Source of the DNA: Bryobacteraceae bacterium
GTDB lineage: Bacteria > Acidobacteriota > Terriglobia > Bryobacterales > Bryobacteraceae
Length of the DNA stretch: 64,000 nt
Reading direction: 5' to 3'
NCBI GenBank assembly: GCA_046155405.1
Contig: JBJXFL010000014.1
Location: 18,119 to 82,118, forward strand
Shown here: piece after piece, positions 38,361-61,747 of the stretch
Numbering within the stretch: the first letter of the stretch is position 1
Layout of the letters: each line of letters begins with the position of its first letter
Program-made: the position numbers and the translations under genes
The notes under the pieces: generated by a model
The model's database searches: none
Told to the model about the DNA's origin: nothing
What the model saw: the letters and a program-made list of their open reading frames with translations, nothing else

Positions 38361-39209
38361 CTAGCGGATTTTCCCTTCGACGAGCGGGACTTCGAAAACC
38401 TTCTCGTGCATGATGGGGCCGTGGCCGAAGTAGCCGGCTTCGCCGAATAATTCTCCGTGGTCGGCCGTAATGGTGATGTAGGTGTTTTCGGGCACGATGT
38501 CGAAGAGCTCTTCAACGACCCGATCCAGATATTCGACGGCCTTCACTTGCCGGTCCTGGAGTTCATCCAACTTCTTTTGATCGAAGAACTTGCCTTCTCC
38601 TTCGGTGGTGCCGGCGGTTACATCCTCATCAAGGTGCTTGAAGACGCCATGCACGCCGGAAACGCGGGGCCAAAGGTCGGGCGATTCATCGGGCAAGGCA
38701 TAAGGGTAGTGAGTTTCGCCCACATTTAACAAATGAAACGACGGGCGCTCTTCGGAGAATGTCATTTCCTTGACCATGGCGCGCATGTCGTTATGTTTCG
38801 GCATGAGTTTGTAGGAATCGAAGCCGTGATTGAGCAGCGTCTTGGGGTTCAGTACGGGTAACGAGACTTTAGCGTGGGTGGTGTAGCCGAGCGAATCCCT
38901 TAAATATGAAGGAAGATTCATTTTAGGAATTAGAGATTTGAATTCCAGTTTTTCCTGGCCGAGGCGCTCGGCGAATTTCAGGAAATCCTGCTTGTAGTAC
39001 TCGGACGCATAGACGTTTTGCGGGCTGGCATGGGGCAGCAGGCCCATCATGAGATTGTAGTGGGACGGGGCGGTCCAAGAGGCATACGACCAGCGTCTTT
39101 CGGTCTGTCCCAATTTCTGCATTACCTTCGGATTCGCCTTCATAAACGAATCAAAACGGCAACTGTCAAGAATGACCAGGACGTAATTGTTCCCCTTCGG
39201 CGTTGGCAT
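38361..39209 (-). CDS. Alkaline-phosphatase-superfamily (sulfatase/phosphodiesterase-like) hydrolase
   Basis: VLVILDSCRFDSF metal-ligand region, SWTAPSHYN nucleophile region, ITADHGELFGEAGYFGHG. The DNA is visibly AT-richer than its flanks. It is divergent from the synthase operon. Confidence 0.78.
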   Translation of the reverse strand: MPTPKGNNYVLVILDSCRFDSFMKANPKVMQKLGQTERRWSYASWTAPSHYNLMMGLLPHASPQNVYASEYYKQDFLKFAERLGQEKLEFKSLIPKMNLPSYLRDSLGYTTHAKVSLPVLNPKTLLNHGFDSYKLMPKHNDMRAMVKEMTFSEERPSFHLLNVGETHYPYALPDESPDLWPRVSGVHGVFKHLDEDVTAGTTEGEGKFFDQKKLDELQDRQVKAVEYLDRVVEELFDIVPENTYITITADHGELFGEAGYFGHGPIMHEKVFEVPLVEGKIR

Positions 39210-39384
39210 AGGCGCCTAGTATAGCGGATGTGCCGCGGATAGCCAATCGAATCCGCCGGAATCGCGAAACTAGCGTTTAATCGGGGGAAAAATACGCTTC
39301 GGCCGCGGCTCAGGCAGGCCTTTTGGAGCGACCAGGACCATTGGTACTGTACCGCCTATTCCGCTCGACCCCCATAGTGAGGAG

Positions 39385-39413
39385 TTGACAGACGGAGAAT
39401 TCACCCGTATAAC
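39385..39413 (+). promoter_or_regulatory. Candidate sigma70-type promoter of the synthase operon
   Basis: TTGACA (39385-39390), a 17-nt spacer, then TATAAC (39408-39413). This would give a ~240-nt leader before GGTGGAGGAG-N8-ATG (39659). Confidence 0.45.
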
Positions 39414-39658
39414 AGATGAGAGCGCCTATCTCTTTCAAGTAGATCCGGGGAGAAGCGTCACCCTGTTGGGGATCTGGGGCACAGCATCAGCCTCACACCG
39501 CTCTGACAGGCCTGAAAAACCAAGTATTAATCGCACCGCGTAGAGTGCTCACCGGGCAGCGATCCGGTAGACAGTTTCTAATTTTCGGCAATCTCAGTAA
39601 TTTGCAATGAAACTGCAACACTGGGACGCTCTGTAGTTTTTGGTGGAGGAGAATTTAA

Positions 39659-40558
39659 ATGAACTTCGGGATAGTTGTCCTATCTCCCGCCGGATTTCCT
39701 AACCCACGACTAGCCGCCGCGGCGGCGGTCGCGGGCTTCAATGGTGGAATTTCGCTTGAATGCCTGAATGCGGCACAAGCGGAGGGACTTGAGAAACAAC
39801 TGCTGGCGAGCGGTCATCCGTTCACGCTGGCGATGGAGTCGCTAGCGGGCTGGCAGGGCGAGTTCGCGGCCCGGTTGGCGGGCAAGGGGTTGGAGCGGAT
39901 TGTCCTAACGTCGGGACAGGCGAGCGCGGTGGAAATCGCGGCCGGGAAGGCGCTGCCGGCGATAGTATTGGTGGAGGTGGTGACGGCCGACGAATCGGCG
40001 GAAGCGGTGGTGGCGGGCGCGGATGGGCTGATAGTCAAAGGCAACGAGAGCGGCGGCCGGGTAGGGGAAGAAACGACGTTTCTGCTGTTGCAGCGAATCA
40101 TCGGAAAAGTACCGGTTCCGGTTTGGGCGCGGGGCGGGATTGGGCTGCACACAAGCGCGGCTTGTCTGGCCGCGGGAGCGGCGGGCGTGGTGGTGGACTG
40201 GCAATTGGGATTGGTGGAAGAATCCAACCTGCCGGAGGCGGTAAAGGCGAAGCTGGCGAGAATGGACGGCAGCGAAACGTCGATTCTGGGTCAGGAATGT
40301 ACGGCGCGGTTTCGCGCCTATGCGCGGCCGAGCGAAACCGCGTTTCACGAGCTGCGAAAGTACGAAGAAACCCAAGGCCTCTATAGCGGCACCGCGCCGG
40401 AACAACTGGCCGCGTGGCGCGGCAAAGTGGGTGAGCGGGCCGGACGCGGAGAACTTCTGCTGGTGGGTCAGGACGGGGCGTTCGCACCGGTTTTCGCGGA
40501 AAACCATCGGACCGTGAAGAGCGTTTGCCAGGCGCTGTTGCGCAATGCCAGCCGGCAG
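39659..40558 (+). other. Domain: NMO/FabK-like TIM-barrel domain 1 (ER-like, atypical)
   Basis: aa 1-300: ...GLIVKGNESGGRVGEE...VPVWARGGIGLHTSAACLAAGAAGVVVDWQL. It has GGR where domain 2 and FabK/PfaD-type reductases have GGH. Boundaries are approximate. Confidence 0.6.
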
Positions 40559-43500
40559 GTGCGGGTGGCGGCAAGGCAAGACGCGTTCCGGGAAGGCGGA
40601 CCGCTGACCGAGTCCCAGGGGACGCGATATCCGATTCTGCAGGGCCCGATGACGCGGGTGAGCGACCGGGCCGATTTTGCGCTGGCGGTCGCCGATGGCG
40701 GCGGATTGCCGTTTTTGGCGCTCGCCCTGATGCGAGGTCCGGCGGTCGGAAAGCTACTAGCCGAAACGAAGGAAAAACTGGGTACGAAGCCGTGGGGAGT
40801 GGGTATCCTGGGATTCGTGCCGAAAGAGTTGCGGGACGAGCAGTTGGCCGAGGTGAAGAAGTGTTTGCCGCCTTTCGCGGTGATCGCCGGCGGCCGGCCG
40901 GACATGGCCAAGGAATTTGAGAAAGACGGCGTACAGACGTATCTGCACGTTCCGTCGCCCGAATTGCTGCGAAACTTTCTCGAGTCCGGCGCCCGGCGAA
41001 TCATTTTCGAAGGCCGGGAGTGCGGCGGGCACGTTGGACCGCGGTCGAGTTTCGTGCTGTGGGATCAGATGGTCCGGGTGATTCTGGCGCATCTGGCGGG
41101 TCCGAAGGCGAGCAAGCCCGAGGATTACAATTTCGTTTTCGCGGGCGGCATTCACGATGCGCTGTCGACGGCGATGACGGCGGCGATAACGGCGCCGTTG
41201 GCCGAGCGCGGCGTGAAGACGGGCGTACTGCTGGGCACGGGGTATCTCTTCACCCACGAAGCGGTCACTTCGGGCGCGATCAGCCGGACATTTCAGCAGG
41301 AAGCCGTCCGGTGCAGCCAGACGATTCTGGTGGAGAGCGGCGTCGGGCACGCCACGCGCTGCGCGAATACGCCGTTTGGCGATCTGTTCAACGGGGAGAA
41401 GCGCCGCCTTTCCAAGGAAGGCGCTCCGAAGGAAGAGATCCGGGAGAAGCTGGAAGGCTTGAATCTGGGCCGGTTGCGCATCGCCTCGAAGGGCGTGGAG
41501 CGCCGGAAACGCCCCGACGGCACCTCATTCTACGAGGAAGTGAACGCAGAGACGCAGCGGCTGGAAGGGATGTTCATGATCGGCCAGGTGGCCGCCCTGC
41601 GCAACAGCGTGGTGACGGTGGCCGATTTGCATGCCGAGGTCGTGCGCGGCGGCAACATTTTGCGGGCGCGGCTGGAGGAGTTGCTGGCCGAAGCGCGGAA
41701 AATCGCCGGTGAGCACAACGGCAATGACGTGGCGATCGTGGGCCTGTCGGCGGTGTTTCCGCAGGCGAACGACGCGGATACGTTCTGGCAGAACATTCTG
41801 CACAAGCGCAGCGCGATTACCGAGGTGCCGAAAGAGCGCTGGGACCTCGACGTATATTTCGATTCCGATCGCCGGGCCCGCGACAAGGTCTATTCGCGTT
41901 GGGGCGGATTCATGGGCGACTTCGAATTCGACCCGATGCGGTTCGGCATGCCGCCGGCGTCGGTACCGTCGATCGAACCGATGCAGCTCATCATGCTCGA
42001 AATGGTGCGGCGCGCGTTGGCCGACGCCGGCTACGACCAGCGAAAGTTCAATCGCGAACGGACGGCCTGCATTGTGGGTACTGGCGGCGGCGTAGGCGAG
42101 TTGGGTCTGGGATACGGTTTCCGGTCAATGGTTCCGCACTACGTGGATTACGCGGGCGGAACGCTCGAGGATTCGCGGACGCTGATAGAGGCGATCGGCG
42201 GGAACCTGCCGGAGTGGACGGAAGATTCTTTCGCGGGGCTTTTGCTGAACGTCGTTTCGGGCCGGGTAGCGAACCGGTTTGACTTTGGCGGCACGAACTA
42301 CATTGTGGACGCGGCGTGCGCGACGGCGCTGGCGGGCCTGCGGTCGGCGGTGACGGAGTTGCAAACCGGATCGAGCGATGTGGCGGTGGCGGCGTCGGCC
42401 GACATGATGCAGTCGCCTTTCGGCTACCTCTGTTTCAGCAAGACGCAAGCCCTTTCGCCCACGGGGCTATGCCGTACGTTTGACGACAAAGCGGACGGGA
42501 TCGTGATCAGCGAAGGCTTCAGCGTGGCGATTCTGAAGCGGCTGGAAGACGCCATTCTGGATGGCGATCACGTTTATGCGCTGGTGAAGGCGGTGGGCGC
42601 GTCCTCCGACGGCAAGGACAAGGGGCTGACGGCTCCGCGGCCGTTGGGGCAGATGCGGGCGCTTGAGCGCGCCTATGCGAAATCGGGGATTGACCCGGCC
42701 ACGGTGGGTTTGATTGAAGCGCACGGGACGGGAACGGTGGTGGGCGACCGGACCGAGACGGAGGCGTTAACCGCGTTCTTCTCGCGGTCGAGCGCGCCGC
42801 GGCACACGATAGCGCTGGGCTCGGTGAAGAGCCAGATCGGACACACGAAGTGTTCGGCCGGATTCGCCGGACTGGTGAAGGCGGCGTACGCGTTGCGGCA
42901 CAAAGTTTTGCCGCCGACGATCAACGTGACGACGCCGAATGCGAAGGCAAATTGGGATGAGAGCCCGCTGTTCATCAATACGGAACCGCGGCCGTGGATG
43001 GCGCGCCTGGACGGGGCGTCACGTTCGGCCGGCGTAAGCGCGTTCGGGTTCGGCGGAACGAATTTCCATACCGTACTCAGCGAGTATCGCCCGGTCGATG
43101 GGATTGCCGACGACACGTGTCCGTTGCGCGAATGGCCCGCCGAACTGTTCCTGATGCGCGGGAAAACGGCGGCGGATGTCACGGGGACGATCAACCTGCT
43201 GTTGAAAGAAATCGAAGCGGGCGCGCAACCGGCGTTATGGGATCTGGCGGCGGCGGTGTATTGGGATAAGGGCCGGGGGGAAGGCGACGTGCGGCTAGCG
43301 ATCGTGGCCGAATCGTTGACGGACCTGACGGCGAAATTGAAAGCGGCGCGGCCGCACGTGGAAGCGGGGAAGGCCTACAAGGATCCGAAGGGAATTTACT
43401 TCTCGGCGGAGGGTTTGGGGAAAGACGCAAAGGTGGCGTTCCTGTTCCCGGGCCAAGGTTCGCAATCGCCGGACATGCTGCGGGATTTGTCGGTCGCCTG

Positions 43501-46500
43501 GCCGGCGGCGCGCCGCGTGTTCGAACGGGCGGATGCGGCGTTGGGCATGCAGTTGGGGCGTCCACTCAGCTCCTACATTTTCCCGGCGCCCGCATTCCGG
43601 GACGAAGTGCGGAAGGCGAACGAGGAAGCGATCAAGGCTACCAACGTGGCGCAGCCGGCGCTGGGCGCGGCGGACCTGGCGATGTTCGGAGTTTTGGAGA
43701 TGTTGGGAATTACACCCGACATGGCCGGCGGCCACAGCTACGGCGAGTTTGCGGCGTTGGCCGCGGCCGGCGCGATGACGGTGGAAGAGTTGACGCGGAT
43801 CAGCGAGTTGCGGGGTCGCGTCATTATTGAAAACGCCAGTGGAGAGCTGGGGACGATGGCCGCCGTGGACGCCGGTGAGGCGGCGACGGTGGAAGGCATC
43901 GCCGGATTGAGCGATGTGTGGCTGGCGAATCTGAACGCGCCGAAGCAGACGGTGATCGCCGGAACGGCGAAGGGCATTGACGATGCCGTGGCGCAATTGA
44001 AGAGCAAGGGCGTCGCGGCGAAGAAAATCGCGGTGGCGTGCGCGTTCCACTCGAAACTGGTGGCGGGCGCGAAAGAGCCGCTTGCGAAGGGCTTGGCCGA
44101 TGTAGCGATGCGTCGCCCGCGTTTCCCGGTTTATTCGAACACGACCGCGCGGCCGCATGGCGACGACGTGGATGCGATACGCGTTTCGCTGGCCGAGCAT
44201 CTGGTACGGCCGGTGCGGTTTGCCGATGAGCTGGCGGCGATGCATGACGCCGGCGCGCGGATCTTTATTGAATGCGGACCGGCCAAGGTGCTGACCGGTC
44301 TGGCGGCGAAAACGTTGGAGGGGCGGCCGTTCCACGCGGTCGCGATGGACCAGTCCGGAAGAAACGGGCTGGTGCAGATGGCGCACGCGCTGGGGCAGTT
44401 ATCCACCGCGGGCGTGCCGTTCTACGCGTACCGGCTTTTTGAAGGCCGCGTGCTGAAGTCGACGACGCTGGCCCGGTTGCTGGCGGAGAGTAAGCCGGAA
44501 CCGATCACCGCCACGGCGTGGGTGGTTCGGGCCGGCCGGTCCTTTCCGGCGGCGGAATACCAGCGTATTTCCGCGAATGGAATTGTTAGAGGCAATGTAG
44601 AAGGCCGCGCGAGCGGTCAACCGAAACTATTGAGCGCCGCGCCCCCGGCGGCGACTCCAATCGAGGTGGCAATGAACTCCCCAAGAATGACCGCGTCTAA
44701 TGGCGCGACCGCTCCGGGCGAGACGGCGGCAGTATCGGCGCCGGTCGCATCCGCAGTGGTAGCAACTCCGCAACCCGCGGCCGTTGCATACACCGAACCC
44801 ATGATGCCGCTCGGAGGCAGCGTTATGGAACAGGTGGTGCAAGGCCATCACCAGTTAATGAGCCGGTTCCTGGACACGCATCGGACCGTCATGATGAGCA
44901 TGATGAGACAGGTCGACTCCATGCCGGCGGCGAGTGTAAGGATGACGGCGGTATCGCAGCCGATGCCGGCGCCTCGTCCCCAATACAGCCAGCCGCCGGC
45001 GGCGGCCCCGGCACCGGCACCGGTCCACGCGCCGGCCGTTCCGGTGGCGGCGCCCGCGCCAGTGACAGTAGCCGTGGTCGCGGCGCCTGTCGCCGTTGCC
45101 GCTCCATTGGCCGCTCCGGCTCCGTCCGTCGCGGCACCTGCCGCTCCGGCCCGGGTTGGGAAGGCGGAAATTACGGAAAAGCTCGTGAATCTGGTCAGCC
45201 AGCGCACCGGTTATCCGCCGGAGATGTTGGGTCTGGATCAGGATCTGGAAGCGGATCTGGGAGTGGATTCCATCAAACGCGTCGAGATCTTCGGCGCACT
45301 CCAGAACGAGTCCCTGCTGCCGGCGTCGGCGGTGGAAGGCGAAATTGAAAGCCTATCCAAGCTGAAGACGTTGCAGGCGATTATCGACTGGGTGGAAGCC
45401 AAGATTATGGAACTGGCCGGAGGTGCCCCGAAGGTCGCGGCATTATCGGTCCCTAATCAGGCGCCGGCTGATGAGTCAACGGCCCAGCCGGCGCCGGTAG
45501 TGAGTGCCGTAACGGAGATTACGCGGTTGCGAGTGGAAGCCGCGGATGCGCCGTTGGGGGAGGAGCGTCGCGCTCCTCTTCCGAAGTTCGTATTGATCAC
45601 CGACGACGGCGGAGGCGTGTCCTCGGCCGTCTCGGCGAAGTTGAATTCGCTTGGCATTCGAAACCAGATTCTGCGCGGAGAGCTGTCCGATCCGGTGGTG
45701 GCGCATTCGATGGCGGTGAGTTTGCGGGAGACTAACGGGGCCGTGGAACATCTGATCCACCTGAAATCGCTGGCGCCCGGAGCGCCCGGCGAGTATCTGG
45801 CGCTGAGTAAACGGCTGGAGAGCGATTTGATGCCGCTCTATCTGTTGACTCGCGAATTCGCTTCCGATATGCGGAAGGCGGAGGGCGGGGGCACCGTCTT
45901 GTCGGTGACCAGGCTAGGCGGAATATTTGGATTCGGCACGACGCCCGGCAAGGCGCATCCCATTGCATCGGGAAGCGTGGCGGGGTTCGCGAAGTCGGTG
46001 GCGCGGGAGTGGCCGGAGACGGCCGTCCGGGCGGTCGACTTCGACGCCGGAACGCCCGAAAGCGAGATTGCCGACCGCGTGGTAGCCGAGCTATTGACCC
46101 GCGACGTTTACTCCGAAGTGGGATACCTGAACGGCAAGCGGCAGCGGTTGCTGACCAAGGCGACGCCGGTGGGCCCGGAGCTCGGACCGGTGCGTTTGAC
46201 CAAAGATTCCATTGTGCTGGTGACGGGCGGCGCGCGCGGGATTACGGCGGAGATTACGTTGGAACTGGCCGAGTATTGCCAGCCGAAATTTATCCTGCTC
46301 GGCCGTTCTCCGCTGCCGCCGGAAAAGCGCGGCGACGAAATCGACAATGTAACCGACGACCGGAAGCTGAAAGCGCTGATTATCGACCGGTTGCAGACGA
46401 TCGGCCAGCGCCCGACGCCGGCGATCGTGGAAGGCGAGTTGCGCCGGATTAAACGGGAACGTGAAATTCTGGCGAATATCGCCGCCATCCGCGCGACCGG

Positions 46501-50900: not shown

Positions 50901-52923
50901 GTTGCAAAAGGAGCCCGCCGTCCGTCCGCCGGCCACCGCGCCGCCGCCGGCGGAGGTGTTGGAAACACCGGCTCCGGTGCCGATCACGCCGCTCGCGGAG
51001 GTCGCGCAGAGCTCGTTCGAAACGCCGTCGTACTACTATGAGCCACAGCAGGCGGAATATGTAGACGCCTCCGCCGGCCTGCCGGTGGAAGCCGGCACGC
51101 TGCTGATGCACGAACATTTCTCGTTGATGGACGATTTTCTGCGCACGCAGGAGACCGTGATGTCCGGCTTTCTGGCCGGTGGCATGTCGTATTCCGGCGG
51201 TCCGTACCTGGAGCCGCGCGAGGAAGAAATGCCCGCGCATGCCGCCGAATGGGAGACGGTCCCGGACGTGAGGGAGGAGCCGATGCTGGCGCATATCGAA
51301 ATCGCCGAGCATACGCCGCTCACGTCGATGTCCATGTTTGTAACGCTGGATCTGGCGCATCACAAGTATCTGGAAGATCACTGCCTGTACTTTGAAGGTT
51401 CCGACGCCGACCAGCAAGGCAATCGCATTCTGGCGATGCCGCTCACGGGAAGCCTGGAACTGATGGCCGAGGCCGCGCTGCATCTGGCGCCGGGTGAGCG
51501 CGTGATCGCCATCCGGAAGGCGCAGGCGCTGCGGCCGGTGAATGTGGAGCGCGGCGCGGCTCCGGCCCGCATTCGTTTGAACATGCGGCGGCAGGGCGCC
51601 GATATCCGGATCGGACTGCACTCGGAGCGGGGCGACCTGTTGACCGAAGCGGTGGTGGTGGTGGCCCCGGACTTTGAACCGGCGCCGGCTCCGGAACCGC
51701 TTACGCTGGAAAATCCGAAGCGTCCGACGTGCCCGCTCAATGAAGTCTATTCGACGCATCGTATGTTCCATGGCCCGCGTTTTCAGGGCATTCAGGATAT
51801 AGAGAAGGTCGGCGGCAACGGGTTGATCGCGCGGCTGCGGATTCTACCGAACACCGATTGTTTCGGCTCCACGGCGGCACCCGGTCTGATTTTGGATCCG
51901 TTTCTGTTTGACGCCGCCGGACAGTTGGTGGGCTACTGGCCGATCGACAATCTACCCGATGGATTCGTGCTATTGCCTATCCGTTTGGGCGACGTGGCCA
52001 TATATGGACCGTCACCCGCGCCCGGCACCGAGCTTGAGTGCCGTTTGTGGGTACGCAATGTTTCCCATCGTCAGTTGTCCGCCGATTTCGACGTATTGCT
52101 GCCGGATGGAACGGTTTGGCTGCGCGTGAAGGGTTGGACCGATTGGCGCTTCCACTGGGAGCGGCGCTTCTATGACTTCTGGCGCTTTCCGAATGAGTAT
52201 TTCAATGGGCGTCAGATTGAATCGCCGGCGCTCACGGCGCGCGGGATACATTGCCGCATTTTGGATCCGATGACGGAAGTGGAGAAAACCGGGCTTTCGG
52301 AGACGGTATGGACGCGGATGATTCTGGAGCGCGGGGAACTCGCCGAGTACCTTGGCATTCAGGACGACGCGCGGCGGCTGCCGTTTCTTTTCCGGCGCGC
52401 GATCGCCAAGGATGCCACGCGCGGCTGGCTGGCCGAGAACGGCCGCAGTCGGGTTTACCCGGCGGATGTCGTTTTGTACGATTTGCCGGGTGAATCGTAT
52501 GACGCCCGGGGCGCCTGGCGCGGCGTGGGCGAGACGCTGCATACGGCCGCCGCCTATGACAGCCTATTCGCGGTCGGCGCCGTTGGCCCGACGCGGCTGA
52601 CTATCGTACTGCGTGAAGTTACGGATGGGGAGCAACCCCTGGAAATGGCGTTCGCACCGGAGGAGCGGGAGTGGATTCAACGGCTCGCCAAACCCGATGA
52701 ATGGACCGCGCGGGCGACCGCCGCGAAAATGGCGGTGGCGAAGTGGCTGCGGCCGGATCTGGCGGACGATGAGTTTTGGACGACCCTGTTGATTCCGCAA
52801 TTGAACGAGAGCACCGGAGTTCTGGCGGTGGCCGATCCGGGATCGGCGGTAAACGCGGAAGACACGGTTTCAGTGATTACGCTGCGCGATGGCAAATTTG
52901 TCATGGCGATCGCGACAAACTAA
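47962..52923 (+). CDS. Second megasynthase: KS, AT, DH, C-terminal PPTase-like (apparently degenerate) domain
   Basis: 1653 aa; see the domain features below. It has no ACP or KR of its own. Confidence 0.95.
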   Translation: MSAKESRPPSGHSIHGDVAIVGLACTYPGARNAGQFWRNIVNKLSAIADVHPDRWDPAVFYDPDPAKEDKIYCKQGGYLPNSFTFNPAKAGVPPSAIEGAEPDHYLMLRTMYEALDDAGYLKKTFDRDRVSVMMGKGNYLAPGLTWIMHRTVVSEMVMRIVESLRPDFTGDELTKIRQSIQRKLPKLNTENAAGLIPNISTGRVANRLDFMGANYTIDAACASSLLATENALHSLLIGKDDMVLAGGSHLFAHIPFLSVFDKTRAMSATSTIRPYDANADGTMSGEGIGVMVLKRLADAERDGDRIYAVIKGAGSASDGKAKGVMAPRVEGEELALRRALSMAGVAPETVELIEGHGTGTPVGDATEIEALHRAYGENSEGRRTIALGSVKSNIGHAMPAAGAAGLIKTALALYHKVLPPTLNVVEPNALLQRPESRFYLNTEARPWIHRKDGAPRRAGVNAFGFGGINAHVVLEEYRPAAETGQPTLLREWDQELFVFEGATRPELMASLDRVRGYVLSVEGVSTADLAFTLNTALTGQAERLAIIASNFEELAQRIDRAKRKLEDPDCSQIRERQGIYYFESPELHNGKVAFLFPGEGAQYVNMLSDLCIHFPEVRNCFDTADTAKKNGAPVSSVVFPAPSLTPEDEAAAEAELFSIERATETVLTADGAMFRLMEKLGLRAHMMSGHSAGEWIAMAASGMLDVDTFIGSMERLETMYRDVAADSEIPRMAMLAVGAGKERVAELASQAGVKIDLANDNCPHQTVIVVEPAHTDRVVEHFLTSGVFIEKLPYDRGYHTPAFTYICDPLRKFFASLDLNAPKVPVYSCTTAELIPEDREGILDVVANTFAKPLIFQDTIRKMYDDGARIFVELGPRGNLTAFADDILRGRMHLSVPMDQFRRPGLLGLCHGLGLLAAAHVPLALVGLYERRQPRRLTLDAKADTVLPEERQPGSIQVSLCYSVLESPPPEMMRSMAAIALQKEPAVRPPATAPPPAEVLETPAPVPITPLAEVAQSSFETPSYYYEPQQAEYVDASAGLPVEAGTLLMHEHFSLMDDFLRTQETVMSGFLAGGMSYSGGPYLEPREEEMPAHAAEWETVPDVREEPMLAHIEIAEHTPLTSMSMFVTLDLAHHKYLEDHCLYFEGSDADQQGNRILAMPLTGSLELMAEAALHLAPGERVIAIRKAQALRPVNVERGAAPARIRLNMRRQGADIRIGLHSERGDLLTEAVVVVAPDFEPAPAPEPLTLENPKRPTCPLNEVYSTHRMFHGPRFQGIQDIEKVGGNGLIARLRILPNTDCFGSTAAPGLILDPFLFDAAGQLVGYWPIDNLPDGFVLLPIRLGDVAIYGPSPAPGTELECRLWVRNVSHRQLSADFDVLLPDGTVWLRVKGWTDWRFHWERRFYDFWRFPNEYFNGRQIESPALTARGIHCRILDPMTEVEKTGLSETVWTRMILERGELAEYLGIQDDARRLPFLFRRAIAKDATRGWLAENGRSRVYPADVVLYDLPGESYDARGAWRGVGETLHTAAAYDSLFAVGAVGPTRLTIVLREVTDGEQPLEMAFAPEEREWIQRLAKPDEWTARATAAKMAVAKWLRPDLADDEFWTTLLIPQLNESTGVLAVADPGSAVNAEDTVSVITLRDGKFVMAIATN
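48007..49389 (+). other. Domain: ketosynthase (Cys-His-His intact, so not a chain-length factor)
   Basis: aa 16-476: DVAIVGLACTYPGA, IDAAC(221)ASSL, EGHGTGT, IGHAMPAAG. Confidence 0.9.
49735..50661 (+). other. Domain: acyltransferase-like (GHSAGE type)
   Basis: aa 592-900: FLFPGEGAQ, SGHS(691)AGEW, YDRGYHTPAF in place of the xAFHS motif of synthase 1. Confidence 0.8.
51283..52161 (+). other. Domain: PKS-type dehydratase with an insertion in the His motif
   Basis: aa ~1108-1400: LEDH(1140)CLYFEGSDADQQGNRILAMP (an 11-residue insertion between His and Pro) and LDPFLFDAAGQ. Confidence 0.7.
52279..52920 (+). other. Domain: 4'-phosphopantetheinyl-transferase-like fold, catalytic residues not conserved
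   Basis: aa ~1440-1653 align segment by segment to the stand-alone PPTase at 57761: LHTAAAYDSLFAVGAV..RLTIVLRE vs LSHTEGIAVLLVAV..VGVDVERP, and EWTARATAAKMAVAKWL vs RIWTVKESLVKAVG. The Asp of the DxE motif and the Glu of the KE motif are replaced. Confidence 0.5.
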
Positions 52924-53266: not shown

Positions 53267-54856
53267 ATGGGCGCTCCCACAATTATCTTTGGCCTCGACG
53301 GCGCCACTTATACGGTCCTTGACGATCTGATGCAACGGGGTGTAATGCCCTATCTGCAACAATTCATCAGTGAAGGCGTGAAGGCCACGATGATGTCCGT
53401 AACGCCGCCGTTGACGCCCCCGGCCTGGTCCACGCTGGTGACCGGCCGCACGCCCGGCCATCACGGCATTACCGGATTCTTCCAGTACGACTCGCCGGAA
53501 TCGTCGTCCTTGCAATTGGTATCGAACCGGCAGATGACCGCCGAGACCATCTGGTCCATGGTGAACCGCCAGGGCAAACGGTCGGGTTGTTTGAATTTCG
53601 TCGCGCATCAGCCGGGACCGAAGATCGACGGCTGGGTGATCCCCGGCTGGATTTCGTGGCGCTGGGTAAAACAGCTCAGCCATCCGTCCACCGTAGTGGA
53701 GCGGCTGAAGAAAGAGCTCCCGGGCTTCGACTTGAAGGCGTTGGCGATGGATTTCGAGGAAGAGCGGAAGGCCGTTGTAGGCTCGCCCATCGACGACTAC
53801 AAAGGGTGGATTGGGCTGCACATCGACCGGGAACGCCAGTGGTTCAACGTTATCAAGTACCTGATGGAACACGACACCGTGGACCTGCTTGGAGTGGTGT
53901 TTGACGGCGTGGATAAGATGCAGCACCTCTTGTGGCCATATCTGGATCCGGGGCTGGCCCCGGCGGAACCGTCGGCGGATTTCCTGCGCATCCGGGAGAT
54001 GTGCTGGGACTACTATCGCAACATCGACGACATTCTGCGGGAAACGTCCGAGCTCTACGGTAAGGACGCCAATATTCTCATCTGCTCCGACCATGGCTTC
54101 GCGGGCAGTTGGGAAGTGGTGTTTATCAACACCTGGCTGGAACAAAAGGGCTATCTCACGTGGAAGGAGGATACGGAATCCGTCACCAATATTCAGGAGT
54201 TGGAGCCGGCCTTCTACCGTATGAATACGTTCGACCACGATCGGACCACCGCCTACGCCCTCACCACGTCAAGCAACGGCATTTTCATCAACGTCAAAGG
54301 CAAAAAGGGCGATTTCGGCATCGATCCGGCGGAGTACGATTCGTTCCTGGCCAAGCTGACGGAGGAACTTCTGAACGACTTCCGCGATCCGGCGACCGGC
54401 GAGCCCATCATCACCGCCGCCGTCCCCTCCAGCGTGGCTTTTGCCGGACCGCATGAGGCGCTGGCGCCCGACATCACCGTCTCGCTCCGCGACCACGGTT
54501 TCTTCTCGGTTCGCAAGGGCGACTCGATCATCGCCAAACGCCCGCAGTATCTCGGCACGCATCATCCGGAGGGCATTCTGATTTGCCGTGGACCCGGGAT
54601 CCGCAAGAACCACCACATCGACCCCGTCCATCTTCTGGACGTGGCGCCGACCGCTTTGTATGCGATGGGTCTCGACATTCCCGCCGACCTTCAGGGGCGT
54701 GTTCTCGAAGAGGCTTTCACTTCCGATTTCCTCGCCGATCGCGAACTGCGCCGCGGCGCGTCTACAAAGGCGGTCGAAAAATCGGACTCGGAGGCGCTCG
54801 AAGCCGACGACGAAGACATTTTGGAAAAGATGAAAGCCCTCGGCTACCTTGAGTAG
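53267..54856 (+). CDS. Alkaline-phosphatase-family enzyme (type I phosphodiesterase / nucleotide pyrophosphatase-like)
   Basis: IIFGLDGATYTVLDDL metal-ligand region, VTPPLTPPAWSTLVTG nucleophile-Thr region, ICSDHGF, GTHHPEG. It starts 3 nt after the ACP stop. Confidence 0.83.
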   Translation: MGAPTIIFGLDGATYTVLDDLMQRGVMPYLQQFISEGVKATMMSVTPPLTPPAWSTLVTGRTPGHHGITGFFQYDSPESSSLQLVSNRQMTAETIWSMVNRQGKRSGCLNFVAHQPGPKIDGWVIPGWISWRWVKQLSHPSTVVERLKKELPGFDLKALAMDFEEERKAVVGSPIDDYKGWIGLHIDRERQWFNVIKYLMEHDTVDLLGVVFDGVDKMQHLLWPYLDPGLAPAEPSADFLRIREMCWDYYRNIDDILRETSELYGKDANILICSDHGFAGSWEVVFINTWLEQKGYLTWKEDTESVTNIQELEPAFYRMNTFDHDRTTAYALTTSSNGIFINVKGKKGDFGIDPAEYDSFLAKLTEELLNDFRDPATGEPIITAAVPSSVAFAGPHEALAPDITVSLRDHGFFSVRKGDSIIAKRPQYLGTHHPEGILICRGPGIRKNHHIDPVHLLDVAPTALYAMGLDIPADLQGRVLEEAFTSDFLADRELRRGASTKAVEKSDSEALEADDEDILEKMKALGYLE

Positions 54857-54871: not shown

Positions 54872-55744
54872 ATGCCCAAGGCACCCGTTAACGGTATTGA
54901 TATCCACTACGTTCGCCGTGGTGAAGGCAGGGATGTCATCCTGCTGCACGGAGTCACCTCGTCGCTGGCGATGTGGTACAACGGCATTTACCCGAAGCTG
55001 TCCGAGAACTACCGCGTCACCGCCTATGACCTGCGCGGTCACGGACTGAGCGGGCTCACCCCTACCGGCTATACCTCTGCCGACATGGCCGAGGATCTGC
55101 TCGGGCTTTTGGATAGTCTCAAGATCGAGAAGGCCACCCTGATCGGCCACAGTTTCGGTGGAGCGATCGGCCTCCACATGGCATTGCTGCATCCGGACCG
55201 GGTGCACGGGGTGATCATGCTCGATAGCGGCCTCGCCTGCCTACGCTATCTTCGGATTATCGCCGATTGGCAGGGTTGGAAGGGACGTCCCGAGGAGTTC
55301 CAGAAGAAGGGGCTGAGTTTGGAGCAGTTCCTGGAGCTGGATTCCAAACAGGACGTGACCGCGGTGATTCGCCATGGACTGAATATGCCCCGGGTGGGCG
55401 GATTCAGAAAGGGCCAATCCGGAATGACGCCGCGGCTGCAGCGCTTACTCGATGAAACCAAACTCGGCTATGAGTTCCGGGACGTCGCCGGCATGACCGA
55501 GGAACGCTTGCGCACCGTCCTAACGCCGGTACTAGCCCTTTACGGGGAAACGTCGCCGTATCAAAAGATGGCCAAACACCTGAATGGACTCCTTCCCAAC
55601 TGCCGGCATGAGGTTCTGCCCGGCACCGGCCACTTCTCCGCGATCCATCGGCCGGAACTGGTGGCGCCCGTGATTCAGGAGTTCGTCGCGGATCCGATCG
55701 ACTACGTGAAGAATGCGCCGGATTCCGTGGCGGTCGCACCCTAG
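54872..55744 (+). CDS. Alpha/beta-fold hydrolase (candidate thioesterase or acyl hydrolase)
   Basis: VILLHGVTSS oxyanion region, nucleophile elbow GHSFGG, and a C-terminal GTGHFSAIHRPE catalytic-His region. Confidence 0.85.
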   Translation: MPKAPVNGIDIHYVRRGEGRDVILLHGVTSSLAMWYNGIYPKLSENYRVTAYDLRGHGLSGLTPTGYTSADMAEDLLGLLDSLKIEKATLIGHSFGGAIGLHMALLHPDRVHGVIMLDSGLACLRYLRIIADWQGWKGRPEEFQKKGLSLEQFLELDSKQDVTAVIRHGLNMPRVGGFRKGQSGMTPRLQRLLDETKLGYEFRDVAGMTEERLRTVLTPVLALYGETSPYQKMAKHLNGLLPNCRHEVLPGTGHFSAIHRPELVAPVIQEFVADPIDYVKNAPDSVAVAP

Positions 55745-57760: not shown

Positions 57761-58516
57761 TTGATTGCATCCTTACAGCAAGGGCAAGCGCACCTGTGGC
57801 GTCTGCCCTTGGCTGAATTTGAAGAAGGCCGGCTTCTGGAAGCCGGCCTTCCGCTTTTGAGCGGTGAGGAGCGGGAGCGCTATGCGCGAGCGCTACATCC
57901 GCGGTTTCGCGCACTGCTTCTGGCCGGCCGGTTGCTGATGCGGTGCGCGCTGTCGTCGTACGGTTCTCGCGGGCCGGCGGAATGGCGGATCGAAGTGGGC
58001 GAGAACGGTAAGCCATTCGTTTCCAACAGCCCCCAGGGCTTGACCGTGAATCTCTCGCATACGGAGGGGATCGCGGTCCTGCTGGTCGCCGTCGCCGCTT
58101 CCGTGGGGGTGGATGTGGAACGGCCCTGGCGCATATTGGACCCCCTCGCCACCGGCCGGCCGGTGTTCTCCGACCGGGAGATGACGATGCTCCGTCAGAT
58201 GACCGATGAACGGGAGAGGCGTGAGCGCTTTTACCGGATCTGGACCGTTAAGGAATCCCTGGTGAAAGCCGTCGGCGCCGGGATAACCGGCGATCTTCGC
58301 CATGTCACCTTCGATGTTTCAAACCCTTCGCCCCGGCTGCTGGAAACCGTACCGGCGTTGGCCGCTCCCGCCGACGCCTTTTTCTTTGCAAAGACGCTGC
58401 CGGAAGGTTTTCTTGTGTCCGGGACCATCTTCCCGTTTCAACCGGTTTCGGCTATTCTGGACATTGACGCTATCGCCCCGATACGCGGAATGATACGCGA
58501 AGCGATTGGTAGTTGA
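57761..58516 (+). CDS. Sfp-type 4'-phosphopantetheinyl transferase
   Basis: NLSHTEGIAVLLVA, VGVDVERP, FYRIWTVKESLVKAVG. A TTG start is inferred because there is no nearby ATG. Confidence 0.82.
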   Translation: MIASLQQGQAHLWRLPLAEFEEGRLLEAGLPLLSGEERERYARALHPRFRALLLAGRLLMRCALSSYGSRGPAEWRIEVGENGKPFVSNSPQGLTVNLSHTEGIAVLLVAVAASVGVDVERPWRILDPLATGRPVFSDREMTMLRQMTDERERRERFYRIWTVKESLVKAVGAGITGDLRHVTFDVSNPSPRLLETVPALAAPADAFFFAKTLPEGFLVSGTIFPFQPVSAILDIDAIAPIRGMIREAIGS

Positions 58517-58563
58517 ATTGCAACCTCTTCTCACGTAAAGCGGGTTTTTAGGAGTTGGCGATA

Positions 58564-59655
58564 ATGCGTTCTTGGCGGATAATAGCGGCCGGTTTGGCAC
58601 TGCTCGTGGTGAGCGTTCCGATCCATGGACAGTTGTTTCCGCGATTGAAGGAAATGCGGGAGCGCCGAAAGCAGAAGTCGAATGGACCCGCCGAAGCCAA
58701 CACCGCCGCCGTAACCGCGCGCCAATCGGTCGCCTGCGGCGATAATTTGAACGTCGGCTATCGCGTGGTTTCGTTTTCCAGCGGACTGCGGGCGGCCGTC
58801 TGGTTCCCTTCCACGGAAGCGGAGGCTCCGTTCGGCTATGCCAACGGATTGGCCTCTTCGGTGGGAACCGATGCCGCTATCGCCAATTGCGGCGACCGCT
58901 ATCCTGTCGCCGTTTTCTCTCATGGATTCGGCGGCTGTGGGACCCAATCGGCCTTTTTTACGGAGTCGCTCGCCAGACGGGGCTACATCGTCGTCGCGCC
59001 GGACCATAAAGATGCCAAATGTAAAGTGGATCAACCGCGCGAAGGCAGCGTTTTCGGCCGGGCCGAAGAACCTTTCAGGAAGCCCAAGGAGTGGTCGGAT
59101 AAAACGTACATCGACCGGCGCGACGATATAAGAACGATCCTTGACGAACTCGCCAGCCTGCCGCTTCTCCAAGGTCGTGTCGACATGGGCCGTGTCGCCG
59201 GCGTCGGTCACTCGCTGGGCGGATACACCATGATTGGCATGGCGGGAGGTTGGAACTCCTGGCGCGACGAGCGCATCAAAGTATTGCTGCTGTTTTCGCC
59301 CTATGCCGCTCCTTATCTGGTCCAGAAGCGCCTGCCGTCCGTTCGCGTCCCCGTCATGTATCAGGGCGGCACGCGCGACCGCGGAATTACACCGGAACTT
59401 CGGAAGGCGGGCGGGGTTTACGATATGTCGAACTCGCCTAAGTACTTTGTCGAGTTGAAGGATCACGGACATTTTGATTGGACCGTGAGAGTTTGCGGAG
59501 TCGGCGGGACCATAGCCTCTTGCACGGGCTCCGGTAACGCTAAATTGATTAACCAATTCGGCATCCAGTTTCTGAATCGGTACGTTAAGGGGGATGGTCC
59601 GGGTCCGGATTCCTCCGGCCGGTCGGCGCTGGCTGATTTTCGTTCCAAGGAGTAA
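58564..59655 (+). CDS. Secreted PAF-acetylhydrolase-family lipase/esterase
   Basis: Signal peptide. VAVFSHGFGGCGTQSAFFTESLARRGYIVVAPDHKD (PAF-AH signature), GHSLGGYT nucleophile elbow, GGTRD, DHGHF. I prefer the ATG at 58564 (AGGAG 9 nt upstream) over the TTG at 58555. Confidence 0.8.
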   Translation: MRSWRIIAAGLALLVVSVPIHGQLFPRLKEMRERRKQKSNGPAEANTAAVTARQSVACGDNLNVGYRVVSFSSGLRAAVWFPSTEAEAPFGYANGLASSVGTDAAIANCGDRYPVAVFSHGFGGCGTQSAFFTESLARRGYIVVAPDHKDAKCKVDQPREGSVFGRAEEPFRKPKEWSDKTYIDRRDDIRTILDELASLPLLQGRVDMGRVAGVGHSLGGYTMIGMAGGWNSWRDERIKVLLLFSPYAAPYLVQKRLPSVRVPVMYQGGTRDRGITPELRKAGGVYDMSNSPKYFVELKDHGHFDWTVRVCGVGGTIASCTGSGNAKLINQFGIQFLNRYVKGDGPGPDSSGRSALADFRSKE

Positions 59656-59657
59656 TC

Positions 59658-61313
59658 ATGCATAAGCTGATTTTGTGGGGAATTCTAATTGTGGGCACCG
59701 GCGTTGCATCGTACGCGCAGTGCCCGGCGACGTTGCAGGTTGGCTACCGGACCGTGACGGCTAATGGGCGGTCGACGGTTATCTGGTACCCGACGACGGC
59801 GCCTGAATCTACCGTCAGCTATGGCAGATTGAACGGTTCGGCGGCCCAAGACGCCGCCGCGGCCACATGCGCCCGCTTTCCCGTGGTGATGTTCTCCCAC
59901 GGCTTTTCCGGCTGCAACACGCAGTCCGTTCACATCACGGAAACGCTCGCGCGCCGGGGCTATATCGTAGTCGCGCCCAACCACAGGGACGCAAGTTGCA
60001 ACGCCGATGGCGGCACTGGCATTCAACTTCCTTTCACGCAACCCGAAACCTGGACGGACGGTACCTACTCCGATCGCCGGGATGATATCAAGGCCACTTT
60101 GGATTGGCTCCTGGCCAGTCCGGAATTTAGCGGGTCCGCCGACCCAACTCGTATCGCGGCCGCCGGTCACTCGCTCGGAGGCTATACCTCCATCGGGTTG
60201 ACGGGCGGTTGGCCTTCCTGGAAAGATCCCCGGTTTAAGGCGGCCCTTCTCCTCTCACCGTACCTGGAACCCTATCTCATCCAGAACCGTTTGGCGGGCA
60301 TGAGCGTTCCCGCCTTGTATCAGGGCGGAACGCTGGATATCACCATTACGCCGTATATCGACGGCAGCAAGGGAAACGCGTACGCCATGTCGGGCGCTCC
60401 GAAACTGTACCTTTCGCTCTCCCGAGCCACTCATTTTGAGTGGACGAATTCGACGTGTACCAGGGTCGCATCCACTATCGCCTCTTGTCTGAGCGCGGAC
60501 GCGAACGCCCGGCTGGCCGTCGATTACTCCAGCAATTTCCTCGATCGTTTCCTTAGCGGCACGGACCGGACCGCCCTCTGGTCCGCGCAGCCCGGACTCG
60601 CCGAGTTCCGGCGGCTTTCCCTGGCCTCGCCCGTTTCCGCGGCGAGCTACCTTGATTCCACCGTCGCCACCGACTCGATTGTCGCCGCCTTTGGCGACGC
60701 CATGGCCGCCGGCGCGACCTCGGCTAGCAGCGTGCCTCTTCCCACCACTTTGGGTGGCGTGACTGTTTCACTCGAGGATTCCAACCGCCGTGTGCATGCG
60801 GCGCAGATCTTCTTCGTTTCGCCGCGCCAAGTGAATTTCCTCCTGCCCGCCGATGTGGCCCCTGGCGCGGTCAACGTCACCGTCCGCAACGGTACCGAAA
60901 TCGTCTCCACCGGTAAACTTAACGCGCTTCCCGTCGTCCCGGCGCTCTTCTCCGCGGCCGGCGATGGAAAAGGGGTTCCGGCCGCCCAGTCCCTGCTTGT
61001 GAAGCCCGATGGGTCCCGCTCGCTGGATCTGATTTTCACCCCTTCCACGCTCGCGCCTATCGCCCTCGATCACCGCGCCGGCGAATTGTACATTATCCTC
61101 TATGGGACGGGATTCCGCCGCGGTGCCGCCGCCGAAGCGAAGATCGGCTCCGTCACCGTTCCAGTTTTCGGGATTTCTTCCACGCCTGGCTTCTTTGGGC
61201 TGGACCAAATCGCCATTGGACCCATTCCGGCCGGGGTTCCGGCCGGCGTTTCCGATCTTGTAATTACCGTTGAGGGACGCGCCGCCAATACGGTCAAATT
61301 GACGTTTAAATGA
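59658..61313 (+). CDS. Secreted PAF-acetylhydrolase-family lipase paralog fused to a TIGR03437-like C-terminal domain
   Basis: VVMFSHGFSGCNTQSVHITETLARRGYIVVAPNHRD, GHSLGGYTS. C-terminal VPALFSAAGDGKG...ILYGTGF...GFFGLDQIAIGPIP...VKLTFK. It starts 2 nt after the previous stop. Confidence 0.8.
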   Translation: MHKLILWGILIVGTGVASYAQCPATLQVGYRTVTANGRSTVIWYPTTAPESTVSYGRLNGSAAQDAAAATCARFPVVMFSHGFSGCNTQSVHITETLARRGYIVVAPNHRDASCNADGGTGIQLPFTQPETWTDGTYSDRRDDIKATLDWLLASPEFSGSADPTRIAAAGHSLGGYTSIGLTGGWPSWKDPRFKAALLLSPYLEPYLIQNRLAGMSVPALYQGGTLDITITPYIDGSKGNAYAMSGAPKLYLSLSRATHFEWTNSTCTRVASTIASCLSADANARLAVDYSSNFLDRFLSGTDRTALWSAQPGLAEFRRLSLASPVSAASYLDSTVATDSIVAAFGDAMAAGATSASSVPLPTTLGGVTVSLEDSNRRVHAAQIFFVSPRQVNFLLPADVAPGAVNVTVRNGTEIVSTGKLNALPVVPALFSAAGDGKGVPAAQSLLVKPDGSRSLDLIFTPSTLAPIALDHRAGELYIILYGTGFRRGAAAEAKIGSVTVPVFGISSTPGFFGLDQIAIGPIPAGVPAGVSDLVITVEGRAANTVKLTFK

Positions 61314-61687
61314 GTGAATCCAACGAAAACCTCCTTCGGCGGTACCTTGCCTGTTTGAACAATAAGGATCTAGCCGGATGCATGGCATGCTTCGCCGATG
61401 GATCGCTGATCCGCATCCGGGACAAGGAGCATGCCGGTCTGAAGGCGATAGAAGCATGGCATACGGAGCGCTTTGGCGCCAATCTTCGCGCTCTGGAGCC
61501 GGAAAACTATCGCCTTAGCGATGGCGAAGCGTCCATCGATTTCCAACTCACCTCGGACCGGCTGGCTGGCCGGAGATTGGAAAAGCTGCCCGCCACGCTG
61601 ATTGCCGCTGTCGAAGGAACCCAGTTTTCGCAGGCCCAGATCAAAATCCGGCTAGGCGCCGGATTGCTAAATTTGTTCGGTTTCTAG
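61310..61687 (+). CDS. SnoaL-like / NTF2-fold protein
   Basis: N-terminal LLRRYLACLNNKDLAGCMACFADG, typical of SnoaL/NTF2-like domains. ATGA overlap with the upstream stop. Confidence 0.68.
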   Translation: MSESNENLLRRYLACLNNKDLAGCMACFADGSLIRIRDKEHAGLKAIEAWHTERFGANLRALEPENYRLSDGEASIDFQLTSDRLAGRRLEKLPATLIAAVEGTQFSQAQIKIRLGAGLLNLFGF

Positions 61688-61702
61688 CCGAAAAAGGCAA
61701 AA

Positions 61703-61747
61703 GACAAGGCCCCGGCGGAAGCTGGGGCCTTGTCTTTTTTTGTTTTT
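61703..61747. terminator. Bidirectional intrinsic terminator
   Basis: Perfect 11-bp stem GACAAGGCCCC / GGGGCCTTGTC (61703-61713 and 61724-61734) with a 10-nt loop. It is followed by TTTTTTTGTTTTT and preceded by an A-rich tract. It lies between convergent genes. Confidence 0.78.

Follow-up and report, generated by a model that had tools for sequence, protein, structure and literature searches.

PfaA-type ketosynthase (KS) genes are among the most abundant polyketide synthase (PKS) signatures in metagenomes and mostly lack a known product. In a metagenome survey, >92% of the environmental pfaA-type KS domains fell outside the clades with known products (PMC10308959). One described branch is the "Type P" ars cluster of Shulse and Allen, which is carried by Azotobacter vinelandii and Beijerinckia indica (PMC3098273). 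Azotobacter ArsA and ArsD are reported to make saturated acyl chains of C22-C26, which are handed to type III PKSs (PMC3098273); a range of C23-C25 is given in PMC4824345. We analyzed a stretch of 64,000 nucleotides, hereafter the window, from a soil acidobacterium of the family Bryobacteraceae (assembly GCA_046155405.1, contig JBJXFL010000014.1, positions 18,119 to 82,118 of the forward strand). It harbors ten genes on the plus strand, g1 to g10, the first two of which code for multidomain synthases, and a divergent gene, g0. As judged from sequence comparisons, the closest characterized relative of these synthases is the enoyl reductase (ER)-containing ars-type fatty acid synthase (FAS), a type I system formed by ArsA and ArsD. 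The locus probably codes for a type I FAS/PKS that belongs to the PfaA/ArsA lineage and works iteratively to make a long, largely saturated chain. The first-pass annotation of this DNA had proposed an iterative PfaA-type "secondary lipid" synthase, and g1 indeed passes the cutoff of the PfaA subfamily model TIGR02813 (1225.9 bits for a cutoff of 1010.1). That annotation had also leaned toward an enediyne PKS (PKSE) or polyene synthase, a leaning that is not supported by the kinship with a saturated-chain system.

A tblastn search of annotated plasmids led to pBIND02 of B. indica ATCC 9039, whose record contains a 2674-aa type I PKS, two type III PKS-like genes, a 629-aa protein of the phosphopantetheinyl transferase (PPTase) superfamily, a glycosyltransferase and transporters. 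The ArsA-like protein of this plasmid is made of two NMO stretches, a KS, an acyltransferase (AT), PP-binding matches in two stretches and a ketoreductase (KR) at its end, with no dehydratase (DH), and the 629-aa ArsD-like protein contains PS-DH and ACPS domains only. From residue 5 on, g1 and the ArsA-like protein are collinear and share 41% of their residues over 2013 aa, double ER region included, and residues 1091-1653 of g2 align with the ArsD-like DH-PPTase protein with an E value of 5e-46. Thus, the window synthase corresponds to an ars-type FAS scaffold plus two additions, an extra DH at the C terminus of g1 and an extra KS-AT at the N terminus of g2. The first KS (KS1) is 53% identical to that of the ArsA-like protein and 46% identical to the KS of g2 (KS2). 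Both systems have one or two acyl carrier protein (ACP) domains and no array, and a glycosyltransferase or transporter theme is found downstream in relatives. In contrast with the ars system, the fused PPTase domain is degenerate in the window, and the type III PKS acceptor is replaced by a trio composed of an ACP, an enzyme of the nucleotide pyrophosphatase/phosphodiesterase (NPP) type and an alpha/beta-hydrolase. No type III PKS (Chal_sti_synt-type; ArsB/ArsC) was found among the window open reading frames (ORFs) at 25-64 kb, the part scanned for domains, or in 83 loci. On pBIND02, the ars-type cluster (L084, 11979-29728) continues with a glycosyltransferase gene, ABC transporter genes and an RND/HlyD-type adaptor gene, echoing the export genes found around the synthases of the window type elsewhere.

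The first-pass annotation had described the locus as an orphan with a non-canonical gene set. This description does not hold, because one and the same core of five genes has been kept in ten or more phyla. We define this cassette as genes for pseudoER-ER-KS-AT-ACP-KR-DH, KS-AT-DH-PPT, ACP, NPP and alpha/beta-hydrolase proteins. Its distribution was probed with the Phosphodiest enzyme encoded by g4, the most cluster-specific gene, using one genome per species and the best 80 loci. A relative of this NPP enzyme is encoded by at least 548 species. Genes similar to g1 and g2 are found directly upstream of the NPP gene in 47 of the 56 loci with enough upstream DNA, and the hydrolase gene adjoins it in 67 of 75 loci. 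The same five genes occur in the same order in three distant loci, from Solibacter, a Phycisphaerae metagenome-assembled genome (MAG) and a Terriglobia MAG, and the window has all five on one strand, in cassette order and with tight spacing. The hosts identified with the NPP probe include Bryobacterales, Vicinamibacterales, Phycisphaerae, Paludisphaera soli, Poribacteria, Chloroflexota, Desulfobacterota and Nitrospira, as well as Myxococcota, Verrucomicrobiota, Entotheonellaceae, Thermoleophilaceae and cultured Pseudomonas and Aquipseudomonas. The window itself belongs to a Bryobacteraceae MAG, one protein of which is 100% identical to g1. Nearly all of the best 120 relatives of g1, which come from Acidobacteriota, Planctomycetota and Alphaproteobacteria and include Solibacter usitatus Ellin6076, have the Pfam set of g1. 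KS-AT-DH-PPTase proteins of the g2 type are also encoded by Rubrivivax gelatinosus, Ideonella, Aquabacterium, Paraglaciecola and Ca. Scalindua japonica, and no Azotobacter match was present among the best 120 found with a Pseudomonas g2 as the query. The locus is thus one copy of a cassette that is spread over hundreds of bacterial species and many phyla. In Pseudomonas alcaligenes Med1, a region that may or may not correspond to the cassette is labeled "T1PKS, hglE-KS" by antiSMASH, with no product (PMC11500355).

A Pfam profile search confirmed nearly all domain calls of the first-pass annotation (Table 1). It had listed two ERs in g1, and two NMO stretches are indeed present, but the first half lacks the catalytic His. 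The His of motif III (xEAGGH) is the proposed catalytic residue in FabK, PfaD and the ERs of polyunsaturated fatty acid (PUFA) synthases (PMC13311796, section 2.5). In the second ER half this residue is kept in 117 of 120 g1 homologues, and in the first half in none of 110. The pair is thus best described as a pseudo-ER followed by one ER that is predicted to be active. Because ER domains function as dimers (PMC13311796), it is reasonable to infer that the two halves form an intramolecular pseudo-dimer. One ACP domain is present in 75 of the g1 homologues, two in 37 and three in four, and a long array is never found. Both ATs of the system retain the GHSxG motif, and AT1 in addition has an AFHS motif, which we take to denote malonyl-type specificity.

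The KS of g2 is not a chain-length factor (CLF), because its Cys-His-His residues are intact. g2 has no KR and, in the window, no embedded ACP; some g2 homologues carry their own ACP. The "PPTase-like" end reported for g2 is borne out by its alignment with the ArsD-like protein, but the profile match is below threshold and the catalytic motifs are lost, with TIVLREV and AAKMAVAKW in place of G[IV]DL..E and W.AKEA..KA. The g2 relatives that have a recognized ACPS domain retain both motifs. Both are lost in the window and in L003, the two loci that have a free Sfp-type PPTase gene downstream (g7 in the window). This covariation ties g7 to the pathway, and g7 presumably compensates for the degenerate domain of g2.

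The canonical PUFA synthases, encoded by pfaABCDE (Types A/B), have in common with the window a PfaA-subfamily protein, an ER of the flavin mononucleotide-dependent PfaD/FabK-like type, a further subunit that carries a KS, and a PPTase of the Sfp type. Unlike them, the window has a single ACP in g1, no KS-CLF pair, no FabA-type DH pair and no PfaB, and its ER is fused in tandem at the N terminus of g1 with no free PfaD. That these four features (ACP arrays, CLF, FabA-type DHs and free PfaD) are missing had been pointed out previously, and the domain and motif scans agree; the Pfam scan of g1 and g2 returned PS-DH and PKS_DH_N matches, none of them FabA-type. We considered whether the locus might nonetheless be a PUFA or polyene synthase, in which the ER would work in selected cycles only and the two PKS-type DHs would leave several double bonds, yielding a polyunsaturated or conjugated chain. 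The score of g1 above the PfaA cutoff and the presence of two KS and two DH domains, as in PUFA synthases, would be in keeping with such a product, as would the very large share of environmental pfaA-type KS domains that have no known products (>92%; PMC10308959). We nevertheless find it unlikely, given that a FabA-type DH/isomerase, a CLF and a tandem ACP array are all missing, that the best characterized homologue is the saturated-chain ars FAS, and that a PKSE entry is absent among the 60 PDB matches listed.

The enediyne systems resemble the window in the KS-AT-ACP-KR-DH order and the associated PPTase domain, and this resemblance is what speaks for a PKSE-type polyene synthase. This alternative is effectively refuted by architecture, and we give it almost no chance. 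PKSE is a single protein devoid of ER, whereas the window synthase is split over two proteins, begins with an ER pair and contains a further KS-AT, and g1 is collinear with the ArsA-like FAS. Moreover, neither a hot-dog thioesterase nor enediyne cassette genes were found among the ORFs scanned at 25-64 kb, and no DynE8- or CalE8-type structure is named among the 60 PDB matches listed for KS1-AT1. The heterocyst glycolipid synthases (hgl, Type F) are similar to the window in that a PfaA-like iterative synthase presumably makes a very long chain, and in their HetI-like PPTase; glycosyltransferase and HlyD/DevB-like export genes are also found in many cassette-related loci. In contrast with hgl, the window has no KS-CLF (HglC), no thioester reductase (HglB/HetM; NAD_binding_4-type) and no tandem ACPs, and it has the ER pair and the NPP/hydrolase trio. 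Two other families were examined as candidates and rejected. The sponge-symbiont widespread FAS (swf) is likewise a widespread, uncharacterized iterative FAS-like PKS, and its tailoring by a sulfotransferase and a B12-radical-SAM protein resembles accessory genes of some cassette loci (PMC3908369); its SwfA protein has a KS-AT-DH-ER-KR-ACP organization with a single KS, and the ACP/NPP/hydrolase trio is lacking. "Type R" of Shulse and Allen, their Solibacter type, has a different architecture, KS-MAT-CLF-ACP3-6-KR. Taken as a whole, the locus represents a widespread and recognizable but uncharacterized branch of the PfaA/ArsA secondary-lipid synthases that is set apart by its ACP/NPP/hydrolase module.

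In essentially all loci, a gene for an ACP-like protein of ~100 aa is found between g2 and the Phosphodiest gene. The Ser residue of the g3-family ACPs is invariant in 60 of 60 sequences, including that of the window. g3 and the ACPs of L025-L082 also have an unusual, conserved C-terminal extension past the Ser motif (consensus LLM.DG.YV.DL.V..[IV]..F), at which the NPP enzyme or the hydrolase might dock. In the g4 family, nine NPP active-site positions (D11, T50, N110, D213, D216, H220, D275, H276 and H432) are invariant in 81 of 81 sequences, with T50 as the Thr nucleophile, and the Ser and His of the g5 family are invariant in all 73; the window proteins are included in both counts. Fusions gave no clue to the function of the NPP enzyme, as two longer proteins have only Phosphodiest/AlkP-family matches, and a single-sequence AlphaFold2 (AF2) model of low confidence (pLDDT 35) yielded no functional lead. 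The PDB relatives of g5 include C-C (meta-cleavage product) hydrolases and esterases, and g5 is presumed to be the release enzyme.

The trio also occurs away from the large synthases. In L060, L065 and L070, three loci from Bryobacteraceae SPRUCE MAGs, the NPP and hydrolase genes are accompanied, at about 2.5-20 kb, by a gene for another AlkP-family enzyme and one for a bifunctional ATP-sulfurylase/APS-kinase; a KS on its own, an ACP, a PPTase-ACP fusion, an MFS_2 protein and an FAD-dependent halogenase-like protein are encoded there as well. These loci may represent a type II-style pathway for a sulfated, perhaps halogenated, lipid built on the same trio. A minimal variant is found in L059 (2044-12438), from a Desulfobacula MAG, where a g1-like gene for an ER-KS-AT-KR protein is followed directly by ACP, NPP and hydrolase genes; neither g2 nor an ArsD-like DH-PPTase gene was detected within 10 kb upstream.

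With a complete set of condensation and reduction domains (KS, AT, ACP, KR, DH and ER) on an ars-type scaffold and a second KS-AT with intact active sites, the synthase would make an acyl chain of at least ~C20, largely saturated or in part hydroxylated, iteratively from malonyl units. The two KS domains might divide the work by chain length or by final extension. The chain would then be passed to the free ACP (g3), and the alpha/beta-hydrolase (g5) would release or transfer it. More speculatively, the NPP enzyme (g4) would act on a phosphodiester in the course of the chain hand-over. Because the PPTase domain, the ACP and the NPP enzyme are encoded in that order in nearly all loci, the phosphopantetheine-Ser link of the free ACP is the most economical guess for its substrate, with recycling or release as the outcome. 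Clade-specific genes would provide for tailoring and export of the lipid, such as those for a short-chain dehydrogenase/reductase (SDR), glycosyltransferase, sulfotransferase/sulfatase, radical SAM protein and HlyD/MFS transporters in other loci. In the lineage of the window, the set formed by a secreted propeller, two lipase-like hydrolases, a SnoaL-like and a sulfatase-like protein points to processing in the cell envelope, in which the secreted propeller and hydrolases would take part. An exported, head-group-modified lipid, as proposed in the first-pass annotation, is plausible from gene content. A bolder possibility, to which we give little credence, is that the PPTase, small ACP, NPP enzyme and hydrolase, which are universally linked, form an undescribed chain hand-over or release module. 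The AlkP-superfamily enzyme would act on the phosphopantetheine phosphodiester of the carrier or perform phospho-transfer to a lipid, acyl-phosphopantetheine would be released or apo-ACP regenerated in a stoichiometric loading cycle, and the product would represent a new class of envelope lipids.

Among the accessory genes, g6 codes for a beta-propeller protein whose fold search returned generic beta-propeller neighbors only and no functional lead. Its family is found in 53 loci in two forms, a cytoplasmic one encoded directly after the hydrolase and one with a signal peptide, as in the window. In a Pseudomonas locus (L064), the hydrolase is fused to the propeller in an 860-aa protein, and hydrolase ORFs of comparable length (848-1531 aa) are found in Chondromyces, Phycisphaerae and other loci. 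We regard the g6 family as a sixth cassette member that is often present. Many close members of the family are secreted, and some are fused to dockerin, T9SS, PKD or FG-GAP modules; a 43% identical paralogue of g6, P0259, is present on a different contig of the same MAG. The gene for the small SnoaL/NTF2-like protein, g10, had been identified previously as SnoaL-like; the matches were found, but they lie below threshold, and the family occurs in 8 loci from several phyla. g8 is kept in L005 and L006, and g9 in L005, L006 and L015, which belong to close Bryobacterales/Acidobacteria relatives, and both are clade-specific accessory genes. The C-terminal part of g9 (aa 326-549) is a Solibacter domain, an Acidobacteria-specific module. 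The order propeller, PPTase, two lipases and SnoaL-like protein is preserved in the Bryobacterales relatives L005 and L006. For g0, a 70% identical homologue is found at the same divergent position in L003 and L008, and a 48% identical one downstream in L078; g0 is a peripheral, clade-specific accessory gene.

These observations bear on the view that g1 to g5 alone make up the functional unit, the propeller, PPTase, lipases and SnoaL-like protein being co-inherited Bryobacteraceae neighbors with no role in lipid synthesis. It would account for the varying downstream gene content among L001, L002 and L003, for the confinement of the lipases to L005, L006 and L015, and for the fact that the close g6 family includes secreted proteins from other organisms, whose PKS context was not examined, and a paralogue elsewhere in the MAG. 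It does not sit well with the hydrolase-propeller fusion and the 53 loci that have a propeller gene, the need for a free PPTase where the fused domain has decayed, the presence of the SnoaL-like family in several phyla, or the short gaps and single strong terminator after g10. We consider it a possible but improbable explanation. The earlier proposal that the gene set acts as a unit can be kept in part, since several accessory genes recur with the synthases, but they do not form one fixed unit and the lipases occur only in close relatives.

In other loci, the tailoring genes are different. A SDR gene is located directly after the hydrolase gene in 32 loci, a GT1 gene is found in 14 and a gene for an M50/HlyD-like membrane protein in 16-20; MFS_2 (8 loci), B12-radical SAM (11), CoA-transferase (11) and secreted esterase (10-12) genes are also found. 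A sulfotransferase, 3'-phosphoadenosine 5'-phosphosulfate (PAPS) synthase or sulfatase gene is present in ~10 of 83 loci. We had considered a sulfur-lipid core, on the basis of the sulfur genes of variant loci together with the sulfatase-like and TauE genes of the window, and rejected it: with ~10 of 83 loci, the sulfur genes represent clade-specific tailoring rather than the core. The pattern is that of a conserved lipid-building core combined with lineage-specific decoration and export.

The same tailoring genes raise the question of a decarboxylative release, for which plant MKS1 is a precedent. KS2-AT2 would carry out one final extension, left unreduced, on the free ACP, and the hydrolase would hydrolyze, and possibly decarboxylate, the beta-ketoacyl thioester to give a long-chain methyl ketone, to be converted to a secondary alcohol, glycoside or sulfate by the SDR, glycosyltransferase and sulfotransferase. 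The absence of a KR in g2 and, in the window, of an embedded ACP would suit such a step, as would the C-C hydrolases among the PDB relatives of g5 and the SDR, GT1 and sulfotransferase/PAPS-synthesis/sulfatase genes in the numbers of loci given above. However, the window has no SDR, glycosyltransferase or sulfotransferase gene, some g2 homologues have their own ACP, and the NPP enzyme is left unexplained, which makes the scheme doubtful in our eyes. We continue to favor a long, largely saturated chain as the product of the synthase.

The ORF map agrees base for base with the coordinates and strands given for the gene string in the first-pass annotation, and with its junctions and divergent AlkP-superfamily gene. 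g1 and g2 overlap by TAATG; the g2-g3, g3-g4 and g4-g5 gaps are 40, 3 and 15 nt; and g8 and g9 are separated by 2 nt, with g9 and g10 joined by an ATGA overlap. The TTGACA-N17-TATAAC promoter proposed upstream of g1 is present in the sequence, but it was not called by a promoter scanner because its -10 box ends in C and the final T is absent. Comparison with the upstream region of L003, which has the same divergent arrangement, revealed a partial -35 match only, essentially just the ribosome-binding site being conserved. The hairpin terminator reported after g10 was confirmed. It is common to g10 and a convergent gene for a PEP-CTERM protein; in L003 and L006, too, PEP-CTERM genes adjoin the cluster, perhaps reflecting a conserved neighborhood or an exosortase-sorted partner. 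The tRNA and Rfam scans of the window returned no matches.

Directly beyond g0 lies a gene of the TauE/SafE family (sulfite/sulfo-compound exporter), seen in the window alone among the loci compared. Flp/Tad-type pilus genes, for two T2SSF-domain proteins and an RcpC/CpaB-like protein, are located upstream and appear unrelated to the lipid cluster. A gene for an astacin-family metalloprotease of 873 aa, which also has InlB B-repeat and TIG domains, is located in the most GC-rich stretch of the window (~0.66) and is followed by a gene for a DAO-family FAD oxidoreductase.

Table 1. Features of the synthase locus and its neighborhood, in window positions.
Feature	Position	Strand	Basis
Astacin-family metalloprotease gene	29616-32237	+	
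Flp/Tad-type pilus genes	33435-36459	-	
TauE/SafE-family gene	37320-38147	-	
g0, sulfatase-like AlkP-superfamily protein, 282 aa, divergent from g1	38361-39209	-	PF00884, 36.7 bits
Candidate sigma-70-like promoter, weak	39385-39413	+	TTGACA-N17-TATAAC motif present in sequence
g1, synthase, 2767 aa	39659-47962	+	
g1 pseudo-ER (aa 1-300), FabK/NMO-like TIM-barrel half	39659-40558	+	NMO and FabK matches; motif III ESGGR
g1 FMN-type enoyl reductase (aa 316-640)	40604-41578	+	TIGR03151 FabK match at 316-610; motif III ECGGH
g1 KS1	41723-42928	+	PF00109/PF02801; DAACATA, EAHGTG, KSQIGH; Cys-His-His intact
g1 AT1	43439-44344	+	PF00698, 146.6 bits; GHSYG, AFHS
g1 ACP, single	45176-45310	+	PF00550; one DS motif, LGVDSI
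g1 KR	46211-46885	+	PF08659, 128.8 bits
g1 PKS-type DH1	47117-47917	+	PF21089 (PKS_DH_N) and PF14765 (PS-DH); HxxxGxxxxP motif
g2, synthase, 1653 aa	47962-52923	+	
g2 KS2	48010-49233	+	PF00109/PF02801; DAACASS, EGHGTG, KSNIGH; Cys-His-His intact
g2 AT2, divergent	49741-50628	+	PF00698, 58.3 bits; GHSAG; weak TIGR02816 (PfaB-family) match
g2 PKS-type DH2, ArsD-like	51304-52134	+	PF14765, 50.9 bits; aligns with ArsD-like DH
g2 C-terminal degenerate PPTase domain	52279-52920	+	ACPS, 17.4 bits (cutoff 25); aligns with ArsD-like PPTase
g3, free ACP, ~100 aa	52964-53263	+	PF00550, 24.3 bits
g4, cytoplasmic NPP-type AlkP-superfamily phosphodiesterase or phosphotransferase	53267-54856	+	PF01663, 144.5 bits
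g5, Ser-nucleophile alpha/beta-hydrolase	54872-55744	+	PF00561 (Abhydrolase_1), 107.4 bits
g6, secreted beta-propeller, 613 aa	55887-57728	+	Signal peptide; no Pfam match; AF2 pLDDT 92.7
g7, free Sfp/HetI-type PPTase	57761-58516	+	PF01648, 51 bits; NF042922 HetI, 90 bits (cutoff 370)
g8, secreted PAF-AH/cutinase-like alpha/beta-hydrolase	58555-59655	+	PF03403, 48.8 bits (cutoff 20); PDB PAF-AH and PETase matches
g9, secreted PAF-AH-like hydrolase	59658-61313	+	PF03403, 49.2 bits (cutoff 20)
g9 C-terminal Solibacter domain	60633-61313	+	TIGR03437, 106 bits
g10, small SnoaL/NTF2-like protein, 125 aa	61310-61687	+	SnoaL_2 and SnoaL_4, sub-threshold (20.9 vs 27)
Hairpin terminator, strong candidate	61699-61738		18-bp stem, 10 GC pairs, T-run
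PEP-CTERM protein gene	61756-62649	-	

Several points weigh against the synthesis of a long, largely saturated chain by this locus as we propose it. No member of the family has a known product, and no description of the cassette, its product or DUF6316 was found in the literature. The ars comparison was made with the Beijerinckia homologues and not with the characterized Azotobacter proteins. Saturation is not proven, because PUFA synthases carry an ER and yet make polyenes, and the chain chemistry may differ from that of the ars system, since ArsA/ArsD have nothing that corresponds to the extra KS-AT or to the second DH. The part assigned to the NPP enzyme is purely inferred, the fusion and structure leads being empty. 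Finally, co-transcription of g1 to g10 is predicted only from their spacing and the single strong terminator.

A single locus of this kind is ordinary for the family, and it is the family that represents a large, cross-phylum "known unknown". A large block of PfaA-type KS genes is now tied to a concrete cassette of five to six genes, anchored by homology to the ars-type FAS, its only characterized relative. Carriers of the cassette include cultured bacteria, some of them amenable to genetics (Aquipseudomonas/Pseudomonas, Rubrivivax, Paludisphaera and Solibacter), and its product and the NPP/ACP/hydrolase step can therefore be tested directly. Were the product to be a structural lipid of the envelope, it would bear on how lipid biomarkers of soils and sediments are interpreted and on the biology of Acidobacteria, Planctomycetota and Nitrospirota. 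Should the idea of a new release module prove true, hundreds of species would make a new class of envelope lipids, among them Nitrospira, anammox bacteria, Acidobacteria and Pseudomonas.

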